Shown piece by piece: positions 5,032-57,254 of a stretch of DNA of 64,000 bases. A program made the translations under genes and the position numbers. How positions within the stretch are numbered: position 1 is the stretch's first letter; each line of letters begins with the position of its first letter. The notes beneath the pieces were generated by a model. The model made no database searches, was not told the DNA's origin, and worked only from the letters and a program-made list of their open reading frames with translations. The stretch is from a virus (Duplodnaviria > Caudoviricetes): positions 1 through 64,000 of IMG/VR virus record IMGVR_UViG_3300020045_008916; one strand, given 5' to 3'.

Positions 5032-5690
5032 AAAAAATAGTAGCATTAAGCTTATTACTTGCTTTTATGGCAACGAACGGATGCAGCCTGTTTAAAAACC
5101 GAAAGGTTGAAAAAACTTTAGAGGAGGTAACAACACAGTCCAAAACGGATGTCACCAAAATTTCGATAGACACTTCTTTAGAGGAGCAAAAAGGGATTTC
5201 AGTTGGTAAGACAAAAAACTACACAGAGGAGATTACCTACAAAAACAACGTAGATATGTCCGCTATCGCTTTGACTGCCAACTTTAAGTTGGATACTTCG
5301 TCCTCTATGCGGGGAGACACGGTTGTGAAACTTGTTGACATAGATGATAGTAGAGTCAGCGTTGCAATTTTTCAGAATAAAAAGACCAACGAGCTTATGG
5401 CCAAAATTACTTCGGCTAAGAGAACAACTCAGGTACCATTCTCGGAAATTACTATAAAACGCAACTACGCAGAAACAAGCGATAGTACGGATACCTCAAA
5501 AAGAGTGCAGACCAACACTTATCAAAAACTGGACAGTGTGGGAAAATCTTCAAGTTCTTCCGTATCAACCACTAAAAATGTAAGTTCCAAACCATCAGCA
5601 ACAGCTATCGTATTGGTATTACTATTAGTAGGAGCCGTGGGATTTCTTATCTATAGATTTTGGGACAAAATTAAACAATTTAAACTTTAA
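5028..5690 (+). CDS. Unimolecular spanin candidate (lipoprotein with C-terminal TM)
   Basis: Signal peptide with lipobox-like ATNG-C, Ser/Thr-rich middle, C-terminal TM helix AIVLVLLLVGAVGFLIY. Confidence 0.55.
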   Translation: MKKIVALSLLLAFMATNGCSLFKNRKVEKTLEEVTTQSKTDVTKISIDTSLEEQKGISVGKTKNYTEEITYKNNVDMSAIALTANFKLDTSSSMRGDTVVKLVDIDDSRVSVAIFQNKKTNELMAKITSAKRTTQVPFSEITIKRNYAETSDSTDTSKRVQTNTYQKLDSVGKSSSSSVSTTKNVSSKPSATAIVLVLLLVGAVGFLIYRFWDKIKQFKL

Positions 5691-5697
5691 CAAAACA

Positions 5698-6039
5698 ATG
5701 AGTTCATTATCATCAAATTTAAGTAAATCGAAAAAACTGACCGTAATCTATTCAATTAGTCAAACGGAAAATTCAGCCTTATATACATCTGTATTAAACG
5801 GAACAACCATTCTTCCTGCATACTCAATCGTAGAGCTTGTACCAACTTCGGGACAAAAAGAAATTAGAATTGTTACCAGTCAAAAAACTTGGACTCAAGC
5901 TGCTGGCGGTTCAGCTGCAAATGCAAACAAAGCCGCTTATCAAGCACCTACTACAGCAGTAGATATCGCAGCTATGAGAACTGATTTTAACGCTCTTTTG
6001 ACAAAACTACAGAATGCTGGCCTAATGGCAACCAGCTAA
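5698..6039 (+). CDS. Head fibre/decoration-like protein
   Basis: C-terminal DIAAMRTDFNALLTKLQNAGLMA motif typical of head-fibre proteins. Confidence 0.5.
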   Translation: MSSLSSNLSKSKKLTVIYSISQTENSALYTSVLNGTTILPAYSIVELVPTSGQKEIRIVTSQKTWTQAAGGSAANANKAAYQAPTTAVDIAAMRTDFNALLTKLQNAGLMATS

Positions 6040-18471: not shown

Positions 18472-19563
18472 ATGGGAAAGATTAAACGAATAAAATGGAA
18501 AGATGGTGATTTCAGTGAATGGGAAAATCAGAGAAAGGAGATGGAAGGTGTTGGCCTTGACTATGATTATGTTAGGATAGGTGCCTCTGATATTTCGGTA
18601 GTAACTGGAACAAATCGCTGGAAAGAAAAGCGTAGATTGTTTATGCACCTTACTGGTGAGTATTCCAACTTTCAACTCTCTGAAACAACTGTCTCAGGCC
18701 ATCTTCTTGAAGAAGTGATAGTTAAGAGGTGGGAAAGTTATGATAAAGATGACCAGCAAGCGGGATTAACAAACACGCTAAGAGGTATAAAAGTCAGGAA
18801 CCTAGAGAAAGCAAGATTTTTCCTGCTCAACTCAGACTACCCAGACTTCTTTATCTCGCTAGACTACATACCAGATGGAGAACAGTACTCACCGTTTACG
18901 GGAGAGCTTTATCACGAGCTTACACCACACGAATTAAAGCACACAAACTACAACTACTTCTGCCAATGGGAGAACGGTATCACTAAGGCCTATTATGACC
19001 AGATACAGACCCAAATGCTTTTGACCAATACAGATTTAGCTGTGTTCCACGTACTTGTTGATGGGGTTAAATACCACGTTAAGGAGTTTGCAAGAGACCA
19101 GAAAAGGATAGATGAGATTGTAGCTGAAGTGAAAGCGTTTTGCAAGCTTGTGAGGGACGGTAAGGATGCCTATCGTGGAATGCTGACAGCACCTACAGAG
19201 GAAATGAGAGAAGCTTTCAAGAATATCTATGAGAATATGCTTCCACCTTTTGAAGGGATGAAAGATGGGGTAGCTCTTGCAGATGAACTGTGGCTACCAT
19301 CAGAGGCAATTGATAAAGATGTAAACTTTAAAATCGCCAGCAAGAAAGAAGACCAGATGATGCACGACTACTATAGTATGCTGCGGTTAGAGGAGCAAGT
19401 GTGTACTAACAAACAAATGTTACAGGCCACCTTGAAAACAGCGTCAAGCAAATGGGAGGGTATTAAATCAGACCGATACAAATTAATAAGTAGAGGCATC
19501 AACTCAGTGAAAGGTAAATATTTTTCAATTAAACCGATTAAAGAAAAAGCACCAAAGAAATAA
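18472..19563 (+). CDS. YqaJ/lambda-exonuclease-family recombination nuclease
   Basis: RIGASD, GHLLE, SLD, ELK and QIQTQM motifs. Confidence 0.75.
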   Translation: MGKIKRIKWKDGDFSEWENQRKEMEGVGLDYDYVRIGASDISVVTGTNRWKEKRRLFMHLTGEYSNFQLSETTVSGHLLEEVIVKRWESYDKDDQQAGLTNTLRGIKVRNLEKARFFLLNSDYPDFFISLDYIPDGEQYSPFTGELYHELTPHELKHTNYNYFCQWENGITKAYYDQIQTQMLLTNTDLAVFHVLVDGVKYHVKEFARDQKRIDEIVAEVKAFCKLVRDGKDAYRGMLTAPTEEMREAFKNIYENMLPPFEGMKDGVALADELWLPSEAIDKDVNFKIASKKEDQMMHDYYSMLRLEEQVCTNKQMLQATLKTASSKWEGIKSDRYKLISRGINSVKGKYFSIKPIKEKAPKK

Positions 19564-19564
19564 T

Positions 19565-19825
19565 ATGAAAAAACAAACAGCACCAAAAGCACCAGCAAAG
19601 CCAAAATTAGTACCAGTAAAGAGAATTAAAGAAGTATCGGACAGTTTGGCAATGTCTGGTCTAGCCAAAACAAAACTAGCTAGTGACCTATCAAAAAGAA
19701 AAACCCCAGCATCAGAAAAATTAGCTAAAGAGTTCAAGTCAGGAGCTAAGAGTGATTTAGATAGAGCAGTAAGATACGATAATATTCAAAAACAGGCTGT
19801 TAACAAAGCAAAGAAAAAGAAATAG
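19565..19825 (+). CDS. Small basic hypothetical protein
   Basis: Lys-rich ORF in operon. Confidence 0.5.
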   Translation: MKKQTAPKAPAKPKLVPVKRIKEVSDSLAMSGLAKTKLASDLSKRKTPASEKLAKEFKSGAKSDLDRAVRYDNIQKQAVNKAKKKK

Positions 19826-19826
19826 T

Positions 19827-20555
19827 ATGGAAGAATTAACATTAGATGAACGCTTAGTAGCTGTTCAAAACGCATTAAAAGTAACAAAAGACAAGTATAA
19901 CGTTTTCGGAAAATACAGTTTCCGCAACCAAGAGGCTATTCTTGAAGCGGTAAAGCCTTTACTATTAGAACATAGCTTGAGATTGTCCCTGTCAGATAGA
20001 ATTGAACTGATTGGCGATAGGTATTACATCGTAGCCTCTGCCACATTGAAATACAAAGAGGAAGAGTTGATTGTAGAGGCGAGAGCTCGTGAAGACTTGA
20101 CGCAGGCAGGTATGGCCGCTAGTCAGGTAACTGGAAGTACATCATCATACGCACGTAAATACTGTTTAGGCGGTCTCTTCTTACTGGATGATAATAAAGA
20201 CCCAGATGAGGATGATAAAGTGAACAAACCAAAGACATTAGCACCTACACAGCCTAAAGCTCCTGTAAGAACTCCTGCTCAGCCAGTAGCTAAAACACCT
20301 GTTAAGGTAGAAGCAGCCAAGACAGAAGCGGCAAAAGAGGAAGTAAAAGCAGAGACTCCGAAAGATGATAGTGCAGACAGAGCTAAAGCATTGACAGCCT
20401 TTCAAGCATTAGATGAAGCTAAGGTTTTAGCACATTTGATTGGCACTGAGAAAATCCTTAAATACGTGAAGCTTGAGGACTATGTGAACAAAGAGCCGTT
20501 AGATGACATAAGGGCTGTATATGCTAAAGTATTAAAAACCTGTAAGAAAAATTAA
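19827..20555 (+). CDS. erf: ERF-family ssDNA annealing protein
   Basis: YNVFGKYSFRNQEAILEAVKPLL and QVTGSTSSYARKY motifs. Confidence 0.9.
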   Translation: MEELTLDERLVAVQNALKVTKDKYNVFGKYSFRNQEAILEAVKPLLLEHSLRLSLSDRIELIGDRYYIVASATLKYKEEELIVEARAREDLTQAGMAASQVTGSTSSYARKYCLGGLFLLDDNKDPDEDDKVNKPKTLAPTQPKAPVRTPAQPVAKTPVKVEAAKTEAAKEEVKAETPKDDSADRAKALTAFQALDEAKVLAHLIGTEKILKYVKLEDYVNKEPLDDIRAVYAKVLKTCKKN

Positions 20556-23662: not shown

Positions 23663-24274
23663 TTACTTAACAAAATTAATAAGAAAGTCTAGCAATAGTT
23701 GTTTGTAATTTACAGCAGCACCTAAAACAGCAGCAGCAGCATCAGCAGCATAAGCAGCATAAGCAGCATAAGCAGCATAAGCAGCATAAGCAGCAGCAGC
23801 AGCAGCAGCATCAGCAGCATAAGCAGCATAAGCAGCATAAGCAGCAGCAGCAGCAGCAGCATCAGCAGCATAAGCAGCATAAGCAGCACCAAAAGCAGCA
23901 GCAGCATCAGCAGCATAAGCAGCATCAGCAGCAGCCCTTCTTTTTATCCTCAAAAACTCTAAGTCGACAGTACCATTCAAATAATCTTGTGTCGCTTGTA
24001 TAGCCTCTCTTGGGGCTTTACTTGGATACTTTTTCTCGTAGATAGGTAATACAATCAATGCAACACCAATGGCAAGTAATCTAAACTCTTTATCTTGTAA
24101 TTGGCAATTGTTTCTTACAAACCAAAACTTATCCTTTAAGGAAATATCTAGATTTAAAATCTGTTGGATTGACATCTCTTGTGCCTCGCCAATGATAGTT
24201 TCAGATTTGCCAGCAGTTTCTTTATAGCAGCCACTACCCGCTAAAATTTCTTTTCTTGAAAATAATGTTTTCAT
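23663..24274 (-). CDS. Helical protein with an Ala/Tyr/Asp low-complexity tail (AAYAAYAADAAA)
   Basis: Imm5-like N-terminal helices (LPIYEKKYP...PREAIQA) followed by tandem repeats. Confidence 0.65.
   Translation of the reverse strand: MKTLFSRKEILAGSGCYKETAGKSETIIGEAQEMSIQQILNLDISLKDKFWFVRNNCQLQDKEFRLLAIGVALIVLPIYEKKYPSKAPREAIQATQDYLNGTVDLEFLRIKRRAAADAAYAADAAAAFGAAYAAYAADAAAAAAAYAAYAAYAADAAAAAAAYAAYAAYAAYAAYAADAAAAVLGAAVNYKQLLLDFLINFVK
23722..23938 (-). repeat. GCT/GCTTAT/GCTGAT microsatellite-like coding repeat
   Basis: Forward-strand gcagcataa/gcagca/gcatca units. Confidence 0.9.
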
Positions 24275-28875: not shown

Positions 28876-29355
28876 TTAAATTCTCCCCGATGATAGTACA
28901 TTAATGGTAAAAGCTCTTTGGTTTTCTACAAACTCCCCTGTCTTTTGATGAGAAGCCGCCTGTGCTATAACCTCAATCAAAATCAACTCTCTTTCTAAGT
29001 GCCAGTCCTCAGGCAGTTCCGCACACTGTGCAAACGCTACACGTGCCTCGCTCATGTACTCAAAATCTTCGTTTAATTCTAAGTGCTTAGCATCGTGCCA
29101 AGCTCTGAATAGTATGTTTATATAGGGGTCTCCGAAAATTGTATTATCGCAATGGTCTCCCGATATAGGCATGTATCCGTGTTTTTTGGTGGCTTTTTTG
29201 AACTCTTCAAAGGACATTTCTTCTCCACACTCTACAGTGAATTTTAAATTATTTGTTCTGTTGACAATCCAGTCGTTCAACCTTTGACTGAATGGTGTAC
29301 TAGCTTTTAACCTTAATAGCTGTTCGATTGAGTACCCGTTTTTGTTGTTTTCCAT
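28876..29355 (-). CDS. Conserved phage protein with an N..FRAWHD..H motif (putative metal-binding)
   Basis: NILFRAWHDAKHL...F...E.RVA; gene directly downstream of the twister ribozyme. Confidence 0.65.
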   Translation of the reverse strand: MENNKNGYSIEQLLRLKASTPFSQRLNDWIVNRTNNLKFTVECGEEMSFEEFKKATKKHGYMPISGDHCDNTIFGDPYINILFRAWHDAKHLELNEDFEYMSEARVAFAQCAELPEDWHLERELILIEVIAQAASHQKTGEFVENQRAFTINVLSSGRI

Positions 29356-29949: not shown

Positions 29950-30318
29950 TTAGTTTTTATGTTTAGCAAATATTTCAATTATCTTAACATCTCTTCCACT
30001 CTTAGCGTAGTGGTTACGTCCATCATTAAATTGTACTACATTTTTATTGTAAAATCTCACACGGCTTCTGTTGACTAACAAATCCTTAACCAGTGGGTTT
30101 TCAAAAATGGAAACTTGTACAGCTTCTTTTCTTTTAGCCCTTAATTTTTTCTTAGTACGAATTTCATCTATGTTAATAGTTAGCCTTAATTTTGCTATTT
30201 CTGATTTAATTTCACGGCTTAATTTAAACCGCATATCTAGTTTTGGCAGTCGCCCACATAAGACAAACGCTGTCGATGTTACGGCTTTTATTGCAATTAG
30301 CTTTGCTTTCTTATTCAT
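29950..30318 (-). CDS. Basic hypothetical protein
   Basis: Lys/Arg-rich ORF. Confidence 0.55.
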   Translation of the reverse strand: MNKKAKLIAIKAVTSTAFVLCGRLPKLDMRFKLSREIKSEIAKLRLTINIDEIRTKKKLRAKRKEAVQVSIFENPLVKDLLVNRSRVRFYNKNVVQFNDGRNHYAKSGRDVKIIEIFAKHKN

Positions 30319-30319
30319 G

Positions 30320-30436
30320 TTACAAAAGTTTAGGGTTTTTAATTGAGGGGATAAAATCGTTTTCCATCCATTCGACGAACAACAACCAGCGTTTAGCTTG
30401 GCGTGTTTTATATCTTCTTAGCGTGTTGGTTTTCAT
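30320..30436 (-). CDS. Small hypothetical peptide (not in ORF track)
   Basis: MKTNTLRRYKTRQAKRWLLFVEWMENDFIPSIKNPKLL, fills the gap exactly. Confidence 0.45.
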   Translation of the reverse strand: MKTNTLRRYKTRQAKRWLLFVEWMENDFIPSIKNPKLL

Positions 30437-30438
30437 AT

Positions 30439-30825
30439 TTATAGGAATTTATGTTTAACTCTCTTTTTTGCTTCGCTGTAAAACTCCCCATCTTCATCTT
30501 CCAAGTCCATCAATACTATTTGCAATCCCTCCCGAGTGCCTCCATTATCAGCCCATTCTAATTGGTTAGGAGAATAGTCTTTGAAATACTCGTCTTCAAC
30601 ATCACCAACACCTACAGTTAAAAAGCTTAACAACGCTATAGAACTTTCTAAGCTATCCCACGAATGAAAAATAGAGGGTTTATAATCAGCCCCTTTAAAA
30701 AGCAACTTACCATCTACGTACATTTTATAAGCTACTTTATCACCACAATAGTAAGTGGTTAGGCTAATACCTAAATCTTTGATTTTAGTAGAGGCTAGTT
30801 TTTGCGTAAAATAGTTAGTTTTCAT
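30439..30825 (-). CDS. Hypothetical protein
   Basis: Coupled ORF. Confidence 0.6.
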   Translation of the reverse strand: MKTNYFTQKLASTKIKDLGISLTTYYCGDKVAYKMYVDGKLLFKGADYKPSIFHSWDSLESSIALLSFLTVGVGDVEDEYFKDYSPNQLEWADNGGTREGLQIVLMDLEDEDGEFYSEAKKRVKHKFL

Positions 30826-31037
30826 AGCTTTATGGTTTCTAAATCTCCTCTTAAAATCCTACCTAGATAGGCGGTTTTGCCCTCATCAACTAAAAATAAT
30901 AATCTACCTATCTGCTTTAAGTCTTTTTTGAAACGTCCGTTTAACAAGCCTTCAAATACGCTTGGTGCAAGAATGCTTTTATGAGTTTCTACTAAAGCAA
31001 GTAATTGCTCGTTTGTTGTTAAGATATACTGTTTCAT
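30822..31037 (-). CDS. Hypothetical protein whose start codon lies in hammerhead stem III
   Basis: ATG at 31037-31035 within GAAACAATG. Confidence 0.6.
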   Translation of the reverse strand: MKQYILTTNEQLLALVETHKSILAPSVFEGLLNGRFKKDLKQIGRLLFLVDEGKTAYLGRILRGDLETIKL

Positions 31038-31086
31038 TGTTTCGTTATTTTTAACTCATCAGGCTAGACACACATCTAGCGACAAT
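31036..31086 (-). ncRNA. Hammerhead ribozyme, type III
   Basis: AUUG-UC|GCUAGA-UGUGUG-UCUAGC-CUGAUGA-GUUA-AAAA-UAAC-GAAA-CAAU; complete core and three paired stems; predicted cut between 31081 and 31080. Confidence 0.92.
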
Positions 31087-31540
31087 TTATTTACCCAAAC
31101 TCGTTGCCTAGTCTTTGGGGGCTCGCAATACCTGTACACTTTTATCGGTGTTATGGCTCAAATAGTCCTGTTTATGTGACTAATGCGGATTTGTTTTTGT
31201 TTCGGGTTGGAGTATCTCTTAATTCCCTACATTACGTTTTAAAGTTGCTATGTAATATTTAACCTAATCGCTTTGCGACATTTCACAACGTCCTACTAAC
31301 TTTCGGGATAAAACCCATATTCAATTGGTAACAACTAATTTGTTTGACTTGACATTTAATAAGCCATTGAGTTTATTCTCAATCCACCATTTAGAGGACG
31401 TGGAAAACCTGCATCTTTTAAGTCCCTGCAAGACTTTTTAGAAAATGTAACAGTCGTCTATATAGACCTCTCTTTTGTATAGACTTATCCTTATTTCATG
31501 ATTTAGCCACTGTTACATTCTTGTTGGTTACTTTCAACAC
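31087..31540 (-). ncRNA. Candidate ~455-nt structured non-coding RNA
   Basis: No ORF longer than about 11 codons on the minus strand; own promoter at 31543-31574; hairpins include AAUGUAACAGU/ACUGUUACAUU, AUUGAG/CUCAAU and GACGUU-GUGA-AAUGUC. Confidence 0.5.
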
Positions 31541-31542
31541 TT

Positions 31543-31574
31543 CAAAGGTAAGTATAAGATTTGGTATTTGCAAG
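31543..31574 (-). promoter_or_regulatory. Early-class Bacteroidota promoter
   Basis: CTTG-20 nt-TACCTTTG. Confidence 0.75.
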
Positions 31575-31749
31575 GGTTATTTTAAAATACTTGTATCATT
31601 GCTTTATTTGTGTGCTAGCTTGTAATTTGATAAGTGCTAACCTACTTTAAAGTTTTAGGTTCAAAGCCTCTTAATCATACTGCAAGCGTAACTTACTAAT
31701 TGGCGTGTATTGAACACTAATATATTTTAAACTCTATACAAAGAACTAT

Positions 31750-31814
31750 CTTTTGCTTAACTCATCAGAATAGGCTCAAAAGCTACCTATTGACGGCTGT
31801 TAGACCGTTTCGTT
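31750..31814 (-). ncRNA. Hammerhead ribozyme, type II, with pseudoknot
   Basis: AAC-GAAA-CGG-ucuaacag-CCG-UC|AAUAGG-uagCUUUUGag-CCUAUU-CUGAUGA-GUU-aag-CAAAAG; loop I CUUUUG pairs 6/6 with the 3' tail CAAAAG; predicted cut between 31792 and 31791. Confidence 0.92.
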
Positions 31815-31817
31815 TTT

Positions 31818-32027
31818 TTACTTGTTTGCTTTGTGCATTTCTCTTTCGTGTGTTAAAACATCAGCACACCACCTTACTTTATTCATTAAGGCAGTAGAGT
31901 TACCAAAACCATATTCAAAACTATTACAACCCAAATATATGTCACCTATTACATTTTTTAATTCTGCTGATAATTTAGCGGCTTTTGCAAACTTTGCATC
32001 TAATTGTTTTACTGTAAGTGTTTTCAT
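31818..32027 (-). CDS. Small early protein
   Basis: Own promoter; stop codon lies 3 nt before the type II hammerhead. Confidence 0.65.
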   Translation of the reverse strand: MKTLTVKQLDAKFAKAAKLSAELKNVIGDIYLGCNSFEYGFGNSTALMNKVRWCADVLTHEREMHKANK

Positions 32028-32081
32028 AATGCTAATATTTTTAGTTTTAAGGTGATTTCCTGCTTGTCACTTCCGACATAA

Positions 32082-32113
32082 CAAAGGTGTGAATAATATT
32101 TGATATACACAAT
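32082..32113 (-). promoter_or_regulatory. Early-class promoter
   Basis: ATTG-20 nt-CACCTTTG. Confidence 0.6.
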
Positions 32114-32866
32114 AGCAAGACAAAAATAAATACAATAAAGTTTAATATAATTTGTAAAGTGCTGATAATGAGAGAGATTAATTTTATATAAGATTTAAGA
32201 TAAAGCGGGATAGCTATAAGGTAGTAGGATATTTTGAGCTAAAAGTTGTTAGCTAACCATATCACAGGATTTAAAGGATAAGAGCTAATTAGCTACTACC
32301 TATAGGTGAATAACAAAGAGTGACACAATGACACGTATAAGATGACACGATATGATAGTTTGTCATGCTATAATAAATTGACAGCTAACAGAATATACCG
32401 AGCGGTATAATTAGTGGATGCTAAAATTGTTAGCAAAGGATGGATGTTATCAGCTAACCTACTAATTTAAGAGATAAGTAATATATACTATAAGATAGAT
32501 AACAAGACATAGGAGATATAAGGGTAAACAGGGGAGAGAGCAAGAGAGCGTGTAACGTGTTGCGGGATATCGTGCGGATTAGGTTGTTATTGTGCCTCAG
32601 ATAAGCTGAAAGGGTGATTATAGACTAGATGGATAAGTGAGGGAATATTAAAAGCACAATAGTATTATACCCTCATCTCACAAACATCTATCTAAATCTC
32701 TTTCAAAATACCCTCAAATCAATACTTAGTGTATCAAAGTGCCTCTAATTAGCCTCAAATATCCCAATTAACAAAGTGCCTTTAAAGCATCGTGAATAAA
32801 CTATTCCTCTAGGGCAGAGACTTGAATATCAATCACCCCCTTAGTGTATTTAGAACCGATTGGACG

Positions 32867-32900
32867 TAAAAAAGCCCTTAACAATTGCTTGCAAGGGCTT
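32867..32900 (-). terminator. Intrinsic terminator of the small-membrane-protein operon
   Basis: AAGCCCTT...AAGGGCTT followed by a T run on the minus strand. Confidence 0.7.
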
Positions 32901-33344: not shown

Positions 33345-33515
33345 CTATTTGCTGTTAGGTGAGAAGATAAAGAACACACTTGCAACGATAACGGCTAACA
33401 GCCCTGCAACGTAGTAGTTTGCAGGATTAACCGAGCTAACAGCAAATAAAGAGATGAGGCAAGCGAAAGCTAATGCTAAGAATGCGATTGAGATGATTTG
33501 GTGAGTAGTTTTCAT
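33345..33515 (-). CDS. Two-TM small membrane protein
   Basis: Likely start MKTTHQII at 33515, downstream of the promoter at 33563-33594. Confidence 0.6.
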   Translation of the reverse strand: MKTTHQIISIAFLALAFACLISLFAVSSVNPANYYVAGLLAVIVASVFFIFSPNSK

Positions 33516-45363: not shown

Positions 45364-48300
45364 TTAGTGGCAACCAGCCCAAGTTTTGTTACAAATCCAT
45401 TCATGGCCGAGGGCTACATTAAGGTTCATCAGATTTCCTGTTTTCTGAATAGCATTAGCTATGGCTCTTGAAATATCGTTTGGCATAGTTATATACCACT
45501 TTTTACCGTGGGATACTGCACTAAGCTGTTCACCCTTCCATTCCTTAGCAAAAGCATTTGCCTCATCTTCTGTTTCAAAAACCTTGAACTCCATAAGCGT
45601 GGGATTAACAGCTAGTTGGTTCTCATCGTGGTACTCAATCATGCTACAACAATCTGGCCTACCTACAAAAGGGTCGGTACAATATCCTTTTTCTTCAAGC
45701 TCTTGCATCAAAAACATGGTTGTATATTTTGCACAGATAACCCCAGCACTCTGGAACAAGGCGTTAAGAATACTGTGCTGGCTCCTAATGTTTATTTTTC
45801 TACCATCGATACTCCTAATGTATTTTTTACCAGTGCTTAACCACTCCTTTTCCATAGCATCCTTAGCTTCTTTCAAAGCAGGTGCCGCTTCCCAAAAACC
45901 ATTATACAGTTCTTCGCCTCTTTCTCTCCCCACCACAAACATCTTCATTATTTTAGCTATTTGAGCACCATACGTTATGGAGTATTTGAAACTTTTAGCA
46001 TCTGACCTGCTGATACTCAGCACTTTAGCATTTACGGAGTGGATGTCATCGGGCTTTTCTGCAATCATAGCTTTTGAATATGCTATTCCATCTGTACCTC
46101 TGTAGCAATAGTGGCCTTCTATTCTAGCCTCCAAGCTACTGAAGTCAAAACCACATTGAAGAAAACCTACTCCTGCTCCAAACAAACTTCGCATTTCTAC
46201 CCCATACGTTGATGTTGGTCTAGCCACATTAGCAACACCTATGTGCTTGTACCTGTGTGTGTTGTGAGTTACAATACCGTTTGAAACATAGCTGTGTGCA
46301 TTTTCAATAGTAAGGTCATAAGTAGACTCTCTTCCTTTATAAATTAGAGATTTTATTTTTGTAGGTTTATAGTCTGGCTTGAAAGTATATTCTAAATATT
46401 GGTCATTCTCAATGTTCCATCTAATACCTCTACGTATTTGGCTGACAGTTTCTCTACAAACGCCATATTTTTCGGCTACTCTTCTATCGTCTCCCTTGTT
46501 ATATCCTTTTTTAAAATACTCCCTAATCTCTTCTATATCTTTTTGCTTTAGTTTTGTATCGGAACCCTGTCTCCTTCGCTTACCAATGCCCCCATGTAAT
46601 TTTATATCAAATTTATTTTCTTTGGAAGTGCCATATTTCAAATTGCTTAGGAAATTATTAAAAGTATTACCATCTAAATGTCTACACTCTAAATCTGACA
46701 AGCCTTGAAAAGTTTCAAGAACAGCTCTTCCGATAGATTTTCTTACTTTTGTTCTTCCATCTCCAACATAGAAATCAAAGGTTACAGGCCTTCCAGAGTG
46801 TTTCTCAGCAACCATCGGACTTAAGTACCTACCACGCTTTGTCCTAATTCTTCCCCAAGAGGATACTTCATACTTATCAAAACTGGGATATTCCTTCCAA
46901 ATTTCTTCCCCTTCATAAGAAAACACCAAATCGTTATCCTGTAATTCTTGGCACGTGACCCAACCCCTCTCAGTTAAAAATGGATGATTACCCGTGCATC
47001 TTAGCGTAGCTAAATTTTCTAGAGTCACTTCCCAAACATCTTTTATACCATTCTCAATTTTATCAATCGCTTTTTCGTATTTTCCAGTGTGTGTTAAAAC
47101 TCTATCTACATTTTCAATCACATCAACAATCCTTTTCAAACCATTGTTTGTAATTATTAACGTATCCTCAGTGACACAGGAAGCACCAATTTCTATTGCT
47201 GGTGTTGGTACTCGGCCATCCTCCTCGCGATAGTTTTTCAGAAATCCCGTATTTGGCACCTCGGTATCCATATCCATCTCCTCAATATCTCCACCTGCTA
47301 TGGTAGACTTTCTGTGGCGATATGTCAGGTAATCTGCAAAGTCTTTAGCAAAGGCAACTTTCTCTCCCAAGGCTATCAGATTAGGACAAAGCTCTTTCTC
47401 CACTCCAACCCGTACGGCAGGAGATGTTGGCACACGAACAGGTTTTCTATCTCCCAATCGCTTTTTGATTTTCATATACACCGTATCTTCATCAGCCTTT
47501 AGAAATTCCAATCGTTGTGCCTTGTATTTTCCTCCCATTGTGTCAGCGTACCACCTATCTAGGGCTTTAATCCTTTTGTCCAGTGGAATGGTCTGTTTCT
47601 TGCTATCCTTCGTTAAATCCCTCTCCTTCCAATCGCTCGGGTTCCAGCCCAGTTCTATTAAATACATTTTTACAGTATCCAAGTCATCAATCTCCGCTGG
47701 TACTTCTGTTTTCAAAGGTTCGGTCAGTGGAAGCGTATAGGTCGTTCCCTCGTATAAAAAGCTTTCACCATTTAAAGTAGCTCCCAAGTTTTCTGCAAAC
47801 CTAAGCATACTCTGGGTATAACTCCCATCTTTTTTGACCTGCTGTACAGGGGGAGTATAGAAACTCTTCTCTGTTTGGGTCAACTTCCTTTTGGGTAGTA
47901 TCGGATTTACCTTGTTCGCAAGTTCGGTAAGCTTATTGTCCAAGTCAATCAGAAGTCTCAATGCAAGCGGCTTATCAAAGAAGAAACCCAAAGTCTCCCG
48001 CCTGATTGCGATATCCGCTAGTTTATGTTCCTGCTTAATGGCCATTCGCCAGCCATCATATCCTGCCAGTTCCTGTGTAAGAGCTTTATATGTAGAAGCT
48101 GTGGATGAGCAATCCTGGATACAGTAGTCTGTCATTAAATCATTGAACTCCCAAAACTCTGCACCTTTAGGGTCACTCTTGTCAATATACCCTGCCTCAA
48201 TGCACTTTTCCCTATAATCTGTCTTGAAATTTCCTGTACGTAAACCCCAAGCCATCAGTCCATGCCCTCCCAATCTATCTGGATTTGACATTCTAGAAAG

Positions 48301-48639
48301 GATAAGCGTATCGAGAAATCGCATTTCCCTTCCAAAACACGTGTCTGATTGTTCCAAATATCCAATAGTATATTCAAGAACTCCAAACAATCTTAGAGCA
48401 GGTAAATCGAATTTTATACCATTGTGAGCTAGAATATAATCATAGGGCTCCAATGCGGCCTTCATCCAGTCTTTTGTGATATCTTCTTTTTCTGCTGAGA
48501 CATATTCACCAGTAGCATAGTCTCGAACTACCACACACCATAATCTTGCTGTATCTTTTAACTTGTAAGGAAAACTCCTATGGTCAATCATTTCTTCAAG
48601 AAGGTTGTTGGACTCTATATCTATGATACCTATTTTCAT
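45364..48639 (-). CDS. polA: Family A DNA polymerase (T7-like, 3'-5' exonuclease) interrupted by an intein
   Basis: IDIE, HNGIKFD and YCIQD exonuclease motifs; DFSSLEARI, KSFKYSITYG and YHDE polymerase motifs. Confidence 0.92.
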   Translation of the reverse strand: MKIGIIDIESNNLLEEMIDHRSFPYKLKDTARLWCVVVRDYATGEYVSAEKEDITKDWMKAALEPYDYILAHNGIKFDLPALRLFGVLEYTIGYLEQSDTCFGREMRFLDTLILSRMSNPDRLGGHGLMAWGLRTGNFKTDYREKCIEAGYIDKSDPKGAEFWEFNDLMTDYCIQDCSSTASTYKALTQELAGYDGWRMAIKQEHKLADIAIRRETLGFFFDKPLALRLLIDLDNKLTELANKVNPILPKRKLTQTEKSFYTPPVQQVKKDGSYTQSMLRFAENLGATLNGESFLYEGTTYTLPLTEPLKTEVPAEIDDLDTVKMYLIELGWNPSDWKERDLTKDSKKQTIPLDKRIKALDRWYADTMGGKYKAQRLEFLKADEDTVYMKIKKRLGDRKPVRVPTSPAVRVGVEKELCPNLIALGEKVAFAKDFADYLTYRHRKSTIAGGDIEEMDMDTEVPNTGFLKNYREEDGRVPTPAIEIGASCVTEDTLIITNNGLKRIVDVIENVDRVLTHTGKYEKAIDKIENGIKDVWEVTLENLATLRCTGNHPFLTERGWVTCQELQDNDLVFSYEGEEIWKEYPSFDKYEVSSWGRIRTKRGRYLSPMVAEKHSGRPVTFDFYVGDGRTKVRKSIGRAVLETFQGLSDLECRHLDGNTFNNFLSNLKYGTSKENKFDIKLHGGIGKRRRQGSDTKLKQKDIEEIREYFKKGYNKGDDRRVAEKYGVCRETVSQIRRGIRWNIENDQYLEYTFKPDYKPTKIKSLIYKGRESTYDLTIENAHSYVSNGIVTHNTHRYKHIGVANVARPTSTYGVEMRSLFGAGVGFLQCGFDFSSLEARIEGHYCYRGTDGIAYSKAMIAEKPDDIHSVNAKVLSISRSDAKSFKYSITYGAQIAKIMKMFVVGRERGEELYNGFWEAAPALKEAKDAMEKEWLSTGKKYIRSIDGRKINIRSQHSILNALFQSAGVICAKYTTMFLMQELEEKGYCTDPFVGRPDCCSMIEYHDENQLAVNPTLMEFKVFETEDEANAFAKEWKGEQLSAVSHGKKWYITMPNDISRAIANAIQKTGNLMNLNVALGHEWICNKTWAGCH
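46261..47178 (-). mobile_element. 306-aa intein with a NUMOD4/HNH homing endonuclease
   Basis: Starts CVTEDT (residue 488), ends YVSNGIVTHN before Thr+1; internal WKEYP..KYEVSSWGRI and CRHLDGNTFNNFLSNLKY. Confidence 0.9.
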
Positions 48640-54705: not shown

Positions 54706-55200
54706 TTGAGCTTAACCGCTTGGTGGCTTTTTGCGTTTAAACAAAAATATATGGAAAAAGAAAAATTTAAGATTAATCTGTTTTGGGAAACACTGACCAA
54801 AATTGAGCTGAAAGAGTATGTGGAAGAAATGCATGAATATCTCTTAGCTTCGGATACAAGTGCAATCAAACAAATGATTATCTCCCTCAACAAACTATGC
54901 CTTACACTGCGAGATGACATTGAGAGTATTTCTGATGGAAATCCCAACCCCTTCGATTTACAAATACTTTCTTCAGACAAAGACGATAAGACCTTCGATA
55001 AACTGATGAAGATTGTGGAAAAGGTAAAATACTTCAAAGAAATCAACGAGATGGCTGAAACCTATAAACCAGAAATTCTTAAAAAAGAACAGGATGATGC
55101 AGCTAAGAGAGCAAAGGAAAATGGAACTGCTCTTGAAATAAAAGGAGGTAATGTATTCGAAACACTACAACTAGAAGCTATTAAGAAAGGAAGAACATGA
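54706..55200 (+). CDS. Possible terminase small subunit (start probably MEKEKF at 54751)
   Basis: Helical ORF overlapping the terL start. Confidence 0.4.
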   Translation: MSLTAWWLFAFKQKYMEKEKFKINLFWETLTKIELKEYVEEMHEYLLASDTSAIKQMIISLNKLCLTLRDDIESISDGNPNPFDLQILSSDKDDKTFDKLMKIVEKVKYFKEINEMAETYKPEILKKEQDDAAKRAKENGTALEIKGGNVFETLQLEAIKKGRT

Positions 55201-57254
55201 GAAGTGAAATGAAAGAGGGCAAGCTTTTTATAGAGGGGCTTGAATACATCTTTCCTGAAAAACCTTCACTTAAAAAGATTAGAAACTTTAAAACTCCAAA
55301 GAAACAGCAAAAATGGTCAAGGGTTACAGAGTATGAAGACTACGACTGGTCGGAAGGCTGGGAAGAGCGAATAGTTCTGGAAGAGAATGCCAAGCAATTA
55401 GAGTACCTAAGAGCCGAGCTTGACCGTCTTGCAAACGGGGAGTGGTTGTTTATTAACGGAGAGCTGACCTACTTTAACAACTACACGTATTTCTTTTTAC
55501 AATGGTTCATATTGGAAGATACTGGCGAGTATCCAGAGTTTAGGGATACCTCGCTCCACTATTACCGCTTTGTAGAAATATGCGATAAGGCTAAGCTCTG
55601 TACAGGACACACACTTTTAAAGGCCAGACGTTTGGGAGCTACATCAATGATTATTGCAAGGCTCTTACTTAAAATGTTATTGTCCCGAAACAAGTCTTTT
55701 GGTATTACATCCAAAACAGGAGATGATGCTAAAGTAGCTTTTGGTTTCTTAGTAAATGCTTTTCAAGCCCTGCCAGTATTCTTAAAACCCCAGACCGAAG
55801 GTAACGATGACCCGAAGAAAGTGCTTGCAATGAAAAAGCAATCTTCTCGTATCAAGAAAGACCAGAAAGTCGCAGGAGCGAGAGAGGGATTGAACAACAA
55901 GGCCGATTGGAGAGCAACAGGAATGAACACCTATGACTCTGGTGCCTTTGAAGATATTCTAGTCGATGAAACGGGAAAATACAGTAAGGACATTCCAGTA
56001 TCAAAATATTTAGGTGTCGTAACAAAATGTGTTAAAAAAGGTACACTTGTAACAGGAAAATTAGCCCTACCGACAACGGTAAATCCACCAGCTTTGGGAG
56101 GTAGTGAATATAAGAAAATTTGGGAAGGTTCAAATCAGGAAGATAGAAGTAGGTTGGGAGAAACAACTACTGGGCTGTACAGGATTTTTATTCCAAGCTA
56201 CTGTGGAGCTGCTGGTTATATTGGAGAGTTTGGAGAAAGTGTTTGGGATACCCCAACACCAGAACAAACAGAATTTCTGAAAACAACAGGATGTCCAGAC
56301 CCTTATATAGGGGCTAAGGAATATCTGCAAAGTGTTAGGGATGCCAAAATGGCCAAAGACCCAGCAGATGCGGAAGAGGAGATAAGGATGAACCCTTTTA
56401 CCCCTCAAGAGGTTTTCGATAGTGCCAACGATAGATGTCTGTTTGACTTGCAAGCTTTAATCGAAAGAGAGAAACAACTGAAAGAAGAACTTTTAAAGTT
56501 AGGCTTAGACCCAGATAAGGGGGAGTTAGGTAGAAGAGGATGGTTTGATAAGCACCCTAATGGTAGGGTAATGTTCCGAGACGACCCAGAAGGTTTGTGG
56601 TACGTTCTTCAGTTTTTAGAGCCCAACGAGTCCAACAGGTTTGAAATCAAGGGAGGAAAGCAAACGCCAACCAATGAAGAGCTAGGAGCAGCTGGGCTCG
56701 ACCCTATTGCTTCAGGAGATGCTACTGTAGATAAAGGCTCTGATGCTTGCTGCATGATACGTTCACGCTACAGCTCAATGAACCCAGATAGAACAGGTAT
56801 TCCTATGGCAATGTTTTTGGGAAGAATGAAAAGTCCTACCAAACTCAATGAACAGGTTTTTAATGGCCTTACCTACTATGGTATAAAAGTGTTGGCAGAG
56901 AGAGCTCCAATTTCTTGGTTAACCTATGCCGAGGACAATAAGCTCGAGAACTACTGTTATGGAACAAAAAGAAGTGATGGAACCGAAGTAAAAGGGATTT
57001 CTGCCTCAGGAGGTAAAGCGGTTCAAGATGAACATGCCGAAGCTCAGGTATTGGCCTCTCTTCATGACCACGATAAGATTGGTTTTATGAGATTGGTAAG
57101 GGACAGAAAAGCTTTCAGCATAACAGATAGAACAGACTATGATGCTGGAATGGCCGATGGTTATGCAAACATTGCTATGAAAATACCATTCAAAAAGCCT
57201 AAAAAAGAAGTAAGGGTTATTAAATACGTCAAAAGAGGAAGGGTTCTCACCTAG
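55197..57254 (+). CDS. terL: Terminase large subunit
   Basis: LKARRLGAT Walker A, ILVDETGK Walker B, GLDP and DAC nuclease motifs. Confidence 0.9.
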   Translation: MRSEMKEGKLFIEGLEYIFPEKPSLKKIRNFKTPKKQQKWSRVTEYEDYDWSEGWEERIVLEENAKQLEYLRAELDRLANGEWLFINGELTYFNNYTYFFLQWFILEDTGEYPEFRDTSLHYYRFVEICDKAKLCTGHTLLKARRLGATSMIIARLLLKMLLSRNKSFGITSKTGDDAKVAFGFLVNAFQALPVFLKPQTEGNDDPKKVLAMKKQSSRIKKDQKVAGAREGLNNKADWRATGMNTYDSGAFEDILVDETGKYSKDIPVSKYLGVVTKCVKKGTLVTGKLALPTTVNPPALGGSEYKKIWEGSNQEDRSRLGETTTGLYRIFIPSYCGAAGYIGEFGESVWDTPTPEQTEFLKTTGCPDPYIGAKEYLQSVRDAKMAKDPADAEEEIRMNPFTPQEVFDSANDRCLFDLQALIEREKQLKEELLKLGLDPDKGELGRRGWFDKHPNGRVMFRDDPEGLWYVLQFLEPNESNRFEIKGGKQTPTNEELGAAGLDPIASGDATVDKGSDACCMIRSRYSSMNPDRTGIPMAMFLGRMKSPTKLNEQVFNGLTYYGIKVLAERAPISWLTYAEDNKLENYCYGTKRSDGTEVKGISASGGKAVQDEHAEAQVLASLHDHDKIGFMRLVRDRKAFSITDRTDYDAGMADGYANIAMKIPFKKPKKEVRVIKYVKRGRVLT

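Follow-up and report, generated by a model that had tools for sequence, protein, structure and literature searches.

The DNA analysed here (the window) comprises the first 64 kb (64,000 nt) of a 74,165-bp virus record. Its large terminase (55197-57254) shows 27-28% identity to those of the Cellulophaga phages phi18:3 and phi46:3 and of Flavobacterium elemo phages, and we take the phage to be one of a Flavobacteriia-type host. The genes near the stretch under study are all encoded on the minus strand; Table 1 lists the features of the locus in this reading direction. The conserved 128-aa protein encoded there has eight relatives (45-61% identity), all on Logan or ENA contigs, and seven of the eight were fetched for comparison, while zero homologues were found for the flanking proteins of 69 aa and 71 aa. 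Searching IMG/VR and GTDB genomes with peptide patterns of the flank proteins (128 aa, 69 aa, terminase) returned none in either collection, and blastn of 30800-32100 against INPHARED phages gave no match. Elsewhere in the window, a family A DNA polymerase (45364-48639, minus strand) is split by an intein with a NUMOD4 (homing endonuclease) motif.

Table 1. Features of the locus, listed 5' to 3' along the minus strand.
Feature	Position	Strand	Remark
Repeat-rich non-coding region	32900-32100	-	first element of the layout
Promoter, then 69-aa ORF	ORF 32027-31818	-	precedes the type II hammerhead
Type II hammerhead	31815-31750	-	followed by 245 nt up to the second promoter
Bacteroidota-type promoter	31573-31543	-	TTG-N20-TAccTTTG
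ORF-free leader RNA, ~455 nt	31538-31081	-	begins at about 31539-31536 (inferred) and ends at the hammerhead cut
5'-terminal hairpin UGUUG / CAACA	31522..31539	-	8-nt loop; predicted
Long hairpin, 13 pairs	31441..31522	-	55-nt loop; 11 perfect pairs 31444-31454 / 31509-31519; predicted
A/C-rich 46-nt block	31184..31229	-	80% identity to L018 329-374, E 3e-5
Type III hammerhead	31088-31034	-	RF00008
71-aa ORF, first after the ribozyme	31037-30822	-	without homologues
128-aa conserved gene	30825-30439	-	next after the 71-aa ORF
Twister-P1 candidate	29419-29369	-	34.2 bits (gathering score 67.2)

The stretch was originally predicted to be preceded by a consensus promoter. A promoter motif is present, but its type is that of Bacteroidota and not sigma-70, i.e., a -33 TTG (31573-31571), a 20-nt spacer and a -7 box TAccTTTG (31550-31543), followed by the start motif AGUGUUGAAAG. 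The element thus has the features expected of a Bacteroidota sigma-A promoter (-33 TTG, -7 TAnnTTTG, spacer of ~19-21 nt, intergenic, gene-facing) and is predicted to act as such. Genome-wide, 15 motifs of this type are found compared to 6.9 in shuffled sequences, and several of them, including the one studied here, are intergenic and point at the next gene. The box and the AGTGTT start also align with promoters of an unrelated IMG/VR contig (L001), of a contig that carries a 134-aa homologue of the 128-aa protein (L009) and of Flavobacterium phage elemoA. Since the AGUGUU start is common to these phages, it belongs to the promoter context and is not specific to the 455-nt RNA.

At the other end of the stretch, a ribozyme had been proposed to define the 3' end of the RNA, which our search corroborates with a type III hammerhead whose predicted cut is 31081|31080. 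It scores 36.5 bits (E 1.2e-5 in the 2.3-kb search, E 9e-8 genome-wide), which is under the Rfam gathering threshold of 48.5 bits; its stem II of 3-4 bp is shorter than that of the model. The core is exact, i.e., CUGAUGAG, CGAAAC and GUC all match (CUGAUGA ... GAAA, NUH cleavage triplet). Compared across the window, L001, a marine phage (L002/L021) and L018, a contig with a 127-aa homologue of the 128-aa protein, stem I keeps six perfect base pairs while its sequence differs in each of the four. Stem III, a 5-bp helix with an open end, shows three different sequences across the same four phages, and both loop I (UGUGUG-like) and loop II (AAAA) are kept in the four homologues. With stems that covary in four phages, the type III hammerhead is, judged by its sequence, convincing and genuine. 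The 3' strand of its stem III reaches into the AUG at 31037. In the L018 copy, which may be impaired, an A-A mismatch adjoins the core. An exact 24-mer of the hammerhead was found in IMG/VR and the JGI metagenomes only in L001 and in the one marine phage (L002 = L022, and L021), and Cellulophaga phage phi18:3 gave no type III hammerhead or twister-P1 match. An unannotated intergenic sequence of Photobacterium phage PhCF1.2 (PQ521129.1, 2519-2570) is 80% identical to the window's type III hammerhead and is probably another phage hammerhead.

The type II hammerhead (RF02276, 25.6 bits, E 0.0013) has its predicted cut at 31792|31791, and its loop I CUUUUG pairs with the 3'-tail CAAAAG, which is the pseudoknot described in PMC3088659. 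As it is located upstream of the second promoter, read-through from the upstream promoter would yield a species of 711 nt. We also considered a circularised form of this 711-nt piece, which is unsupported: its ends come from different hammerheads, for which inspection revealed no joint helix. The twister-P1 candidate, ~14 nt upstream of a 159-aa ORF (28876-29355), is the third self-cleaving ribozyme on the minus strand within 2.5 kb.

Between promoter and cut, the stretch is ORF-free as originally predicted: 31081-31540 contains no ORF, and the longest minus-strand stop-to-stop frame spans 38 aa. A codon log-odds score trained on 59 long ORFs from the same genome gives positive values for the genes on either side but is negative in all three minus frames from ~31800 to 31080. 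Plus-strand values over the stretch do not exceed 0.05, whereas coding windows have 0.28 on average and 0.06 at the 5th percentile. Furthermore, tblastx against the phage itself and all fetched relatives revealed no protein remnant. With neither a coding signal in the six frames nor such a remnant, the idea of a recent pseudogene was dropped. The leader is A-rich (38% A) and in this resembles the sense strand of the adjoining genes, whereas the upstream control region is T-rich. No second copy of the stretch was found in the genome, and no rRNA-type boxA was seen by eye. A mini-ORF (AUG-AAA-UAA, 31499-31491) is placed inside the loop of the long hairpin.

This mini-ORF bears on the idea that the stretch is an inert spacer from a lost gene cassette, i.e., leftover or acquired DNA that is tolerated since the hammerhead removes it from the message. 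Two cassettes located upstream (promoter, ~50-nt UTR, ATGAAAAC...) are similar to the promoter and the initial ~45 nt of the stretch, in which, however, AAA TAA comes after the ATG. In an alignment with these cassettes, their gene starts at 33515 and 32027 coincide with the ATG of the mini-ORF (31499-31497), and the distance to the -7 box is similar (43 nt vs. 47 and 54 nt in the two cassettes). The interior of the stretch, unconserved and folding like random sequence (see below), would fit such an origin as well. However, the UTR similarity to the other cassettes is modest past the promoter, and since no frame retains a coding signal and no tblastx remnant was found, the decay would have to be old, while phage genomes normally delete old junk. 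It also leaves the conservation of the 46-nt block in L018 to be accounted for. We therefore consider a lost cassette unlikely.

Next, we turn to the folding of the RNA, for which stability was compared to that of dinucleotide shuffles. The original prediction of a structured RNA is not borne out, i.e., the z-score is -0.88 for the 465-nt RNA and -0.64 for the 711-nt RNA between the hammerheads. Only the first 116 nt, which comprise the 5' hairpin and the 13-bp stem, deviate with z = -2.47, compared to -0.44, +0.02 and -0.56 for the other three segments of ~120 nt. Among 100-nt windows, only two show z < -2, namely 31525-31426, which holds the 11-bp inverted repeat, and 31700-31601, which is upstream of the promoter. 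For the hairpin window (31426-31525), we obtained z = -2.75 on the minus strand and z = -4.26 on the plus strand. That is, the window is relatively more stable on the plus strand, such that the signal is not assignable to RNA rather than DNA.

The individual hairpins that had been listed for the stretch do exist, but most of them are of a kind that shuffled sequence yields as well. The 11-bp stem is present as a perfect inverted repeat, extends to 13 pairs in the RNA and arises in 33/2000 shuffles of the region. The inner pairing GUCUAUA/UAUAGAC is found as part of a 12-bp palindrome, GTCTATATAGAC at 31467-31456, within the 55-nt loop of the long hairpin. The smaller hairpins are present too, but the numbers of 5-, 6- and 7-bp hairpins match those of shuffles. 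Inverted repeats of 11 bp are not commoner genome-wide than expected (4 hits at 2 loci vs. 3.3 in shuffles). Apart from the repeat in the stretch, a single long perfect inverted repeat is present genome-wide, with 13-bp arms (33346-33358 / 33436-33448) and a 77-nt spacer, within a small ORF (33345-33515). In L009, 18 nt of the 5'-terminal hairpin recur at 5379-5396 with one loop change.

Given the strand preference of the hairpin window, the features may act as DNA, with the nested palindromes being repressor operators or part of a replication origin in a ~3-kb gene-poor early control region. The palindromes are perfect in Watson-Crick terms (11-bp arms and the 12-bp GTCTATATAGAC), and TCTATACAAA occurs in exact form just twice in the window (31733-31742 and 31474-31483), in inverted orientation and on either side of the promoter. 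In addition, the adjoining region 32100-32900 is repeat-rich, non-coding and partly common to L009. We nevertheless hold a role as DNA to be very unlikely, given that the motifs are not enriched genome-wide, that the palindromes span less than 100 of the 455 nt and are not conserved in L009, L001 and elemoA, and that the stretch contains no iteron-like repeats.

The stability of the 5' part could also indicate that only the first ~95 nt form a discrete small RNA, in which the 5' hairpin and the 13-bp stem are followed by UUUUCU as a weak terminator or attenuator, the remainder being read-through. The two-hairpin 5' domain alone is more stable than shuffles, and U residues do follow the stem. 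To this we give hardly any weight, since the stem encloses a loop of 55 nt, the U-run is short and partly inside the stem, a simple terminator scan had no match there, and the leaders of L009, L001 and elemoA lack the element.

A function as sponge or decoy, which had been suggested for the RNA, finds no backing in its motif content: repeats of 5- to 8-mers occur at or below the shuffle expectation, and internal direct repeats of at least 11 nt are absent from the stretch. With no short motif repeated above chance, the stretch is without a sponge-like architecture. Pairing of the leader with the hammerhead or the start region, as in a switch, was tried and rejected, the duplex energy being unremarkable (209/300 shuffles are as good). 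That the RNA matches neither tmRNA, RNase P, 6S nor a group I intron is in agreement with our Rfam scan. Here, cmscan of 30300-32600 at E up to 10, which covers GOLLD, ROOL, 6S, tmRNA, RNase P, group I intron and riboswitches, gave only the hammerhead and two chance-level hits, and ARAGORN found no tmRNA. Outside this region, the window shows an Rfam match to isrG (23677-23943, minus strand, 44.9 bits, E 1.6e-8, gathering score 100), which is within a 203-aa ORF (23663-24274) and is probably coding-sequence similarity and not an sRNA.

The arrangement of the locus is found again in other phages, i.e., a promoter with a TAnnTTTG-N-AGUGUU start, a gene-free leader of 170-455 nt, a self-cleaving ribozyme and the first ORF follow each other in the window, L009, L001 and elemoA. 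In L009, a terminator is followed by ~800 nt of repeat-rich non-coding DNA (partly alignable to 32799-32764), the promoter, the same first 18 transcript nt, ~180 nt without a gene, a twister-P1 ribozyme, an uncalled ORF and the 134-aa homologue. This twister-P1 (5557-5617, 43.3 bits) occupies the position of the window's type III hammerhead, ~20 nt upstream of an 88-aa ORF (5637-5903) that the gene caller had missed. L001 shows the promoter, the same AGUGUUGAAAG start, ~165 nt, a hammerhead of the same subtype and then an ORF. In the marine phage L021, the same hammerhead subtype follows several hundred nt that, by eye, look gene-free.

The cultured phage vB_FspP_elemoA_7-9A (L033, NC_055852.1) has two tandem promoters with the same TAtaTTTG-N-AGUGU start and a leader (19140-19550) of 175-415 nt that holds no convincing gene. 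Its leftward operon begins with gp62, and directly upstream of this gene lies a type III hammerhead (19083-19139, minus strand, 36.3 bits) that is not annotated; the ~1 kb upstream of the ribozyme (19140-20170) carries only tiny opposite-strand ORFs (30-55 aa) as annotation. The 68 elemo phages are at least 99% identical over the leader and thus yield no covariation. L018 probably shares the layout: a 41-aa ORF directly precedes the 127-aa homologue, a variant type III hammerhead extends up to the ATG of this small ORF, and the 344 nt upstream of the ribozyme hold one called ORF (51 aa, over the block) with no real homologues. No promoter motif was found upstream of the L018 hammerhead.

Beside the ribozyme-bearing leaders, window and L009 have further non-coding sequence in common. 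The start region CTAAAAATATTAGCATTATGAAAAC (23-25 nt) occurs twice in the window (33535-33511 and 32045-32023, minus strand) and is 100% identical at L009 4042-4066. This conservation is unusually strong for a 5' UTR, with the proteins shared by window and L009 being only about 55-64% identical. Both phages also contain, after a terminator, ~800 nt of gene-free T-rich DNA (window 32100-32900, minus strand; L009 4560-5340) with recurring TACACTAAG and GGTTAGC-like motifs, within which window 32799-32764 is 83% identical to L009 4627-4662. The region 32100-32900 is possibly an origin or operator array.

For the interior of the leader, in contrast, conservation is minimal. When aligned locally to the leaders of L009 and L001, it scores no higher than shuffles do. 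As a control, other non-coding pieces of window and L009 do align (a 25-nt initiation region with 100% and a 36-nt piece with 83% identity), so the lack of alignment is not simply a matter of divergence. Two sequence patterns searched in IMG/VR were discarded: GTGTTGAAAGNAACCAAC has 8 matches, which is the chance level, all in coding sequence without promoter context, and the 4 matches of CAACCCGAANCAAAANCAAA are likewise at chance and coding.

The 46-nt block is the only interior part with a detectable homologue. It is predicted to be mostly single-stranded, and its distance to the downstream hammerhead is similar in the window and in L018. Counted on the alignment by L018 codon position, the differences amount to 5 at first, 1 at second and 3 at third positions. 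This pattern is not coding-like and, together with stop codons of the window in the L018 frame, argues that the block is conserved as nucleic acid and not as protein. A consensus fold of window and L018 has 8 pairs, two of them with double changes, of which only 3+2 are in the block, and it relies on one partial homologue. The block is about as conserved as the adjoining coding DNA, i.e., at least part of the leader is under constraint. Two roles considered for it were rejected by inspection: a pairing with codons 4-7 of the 71-aa gene is absent in L018, and a plus-strand promoter lacks a TAnnTTTG box in either phage.

This block is among the observations that favor a trans-acting early phage RNA, where the ribozyme would serve to free the fragment, which would bind a host or phage factor via its 5' two-hairpin domain or via the block. 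In support, the block is conserved without a coding pattern, the 5' domain has the z-score of -2.47 reported above, and the A-richness is that of a transcribed sense strand, unlike the T-rich upstream control region. Moreover, the ribozyme class is interchangeable at the junction of leader and ORF, being a hammerhead in the window and L018 and a twister in L009. On the other hand, we see no global structure signal, no repeated binding motifs, no Rfam match and no homology to the counterpart leaders of L009 and L001, and the consensus structure with L018 is limited to 5 pairs in the block. On balance, a trans-acting RNA is a serious candidate but appears doubtful to us.

Instead, with about an even chance of being correct, we read the 455 nt as an early operon's untranslated 5' leader, which the hammerhead removes such that the released fragment is a by-product. 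This reading agrees with a stretch that is non-coding on both strands and ends in a hammerhead with exact core and covarying stems. Beyond the first ~116 nt, the fold equals that of shuffles; repeated motifs are missing and there is no significant pairing of leader and ribozyme. The counterpart leader interiors are unalignable while other non-coding elements align with L009, and the layout recurs in L001, in L009 (with twister-P1) and in the cultured elemoA. As the stretch folds like scrambled sequence and is barely conserved, a long discarded leader is likelier than a new regulatory RNA. A precedent is known from the haloviruses HF1/HF2 (PMC3088659).

For the use of the promoter, cleavage in vivo and what becomes of the fragment, we infer the following course. 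The host RNA polymerase would start at the TAccTTTG promoter of the early operon (71-aa ORF, 128-aa gene and onwards). As the RNA emerges, the small 5' hairpin and the 13-bp stem would form first, whereas the next ~350 nt are A-rich and would fold weakly. Cleavage by the type III hammerhead, 44 nt before the AUG, would then free a leader with a 5'-triphosphate and a 2',3'-cyclic phosphate, while the remaining mRNA would start with a 5'-OH and the stem I hairpin. The 5' end of the mRNA would be identical whether transcription comes from the promoter at 31573-31543 or as read-through from an upstream one. If the leader acts at all, it would do so in cis, i.e., by promoter-proximal control or by insulation of the message from upstream sequence.

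Provided that promoter and hammerhead are both functional, a ~455-nt RNA whose 3' end is made by the ribozyme has to arise. To this extent the original prediction stands, while its reading as a structured RNA, sponge or decoy is unsupported. Some observations speak against a mere leader. This reading does not explain why a gene-dense phage keeps 455 nt, or 711 nt when counted from one hammerhead to the other, of sequence that appears unconstrained, and the 46-nt block shared with L018 is conserved at about the level of adjoining coding DNA. Furthermore, different ribozyme classes at one junction equally fit a selection for release of the upstream RNA.

In size range and location within a phage genome, the RNA is comparable to GOLLD, ROOL, 6S, tmRNA and RNase P, but in contrast to these, it has no Rfam match and no ornate or conserved structure. 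The stretch itself is ordinary-looking, and there is no evidence for a structured or conserved RNA. A parallel to the proposed leader is given by synthetic insulators, i.e., RiboJ-type hammerheads between promoter and ORF, which cut off the promoter-derived leader and leave one defined 5' end with a hairpin irrespective of the promoter used. These are engineered devices, while a natural insulator role of the hammerhead studied here is a proposal.

Among natural systems, the haloviruses HF1/HF2 carry a hammerhead 13 nt before the first early ORF, with a mapped mRNA 5' end at the cut (Perreault 2011, PMC3088659). As in these, the hammerhead of the window is shortly upstream of the first ORF of an early polycistronic transcript, and the upstream leader is (here by prediction) removed. 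The differences are that the host is bacterial (Flavobacteriia-type) and not archaeal, that the core is canonical type III and not a variant, that the leader is very long (~455 nt) and that a second, upstream hammerhead brackets 711 gene-free nt. Hammerhead and twister ribozymes are also known to cluster along prophage transcripts, where they flank genes (PMC3088659; review PMC6765202). The type II hammerhead, type III hammerhead and twister-P1 candidate on one strand within 2.5 kb are similar to such clusters, and the three would cut a long phage transcript into pieces. In contrast to the published clusters, two of the ribozymes flank a gene-free segment with an internal promoter and not genes. 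That is, ribozyme-bearing early leaders and ribozyme-punctuated phage transcripts are already known, while the gene-free segment bracketed by two hammerheads is unusual.

The purpose of genomic self-cleaving ribozymes in bacteria and phages is still undefined (review PMC6765202). With respect to this question, the locus is a clear case, with a long gene-free leader on one side of the ribozyme and the first early ORF on the other, and a related phage has a different ribozyme class at the same junction. Extending the trans-acting reading, early RNAs of Flavobacteriia-type phages might constitute a class in which selection on the interchangeable ribozymes (type III hammerhead or twister) favors RNA release and not trimming of the message, with the 455-nt RNA binding a host factor at the onset of infection via the 46-nt block or the 5' two-hairpin domain. 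We deem such a class rather improbable; if it is true, conceivable host factors would be an RNA-binding protein, an RNase or the RNA polymerase. Since the same layout is present in the cultured pair vB_FspP_elemoA / Flavobacterium sp. BAL314, the question of whether the ribozymes serve trimming or release is testable at the bench.
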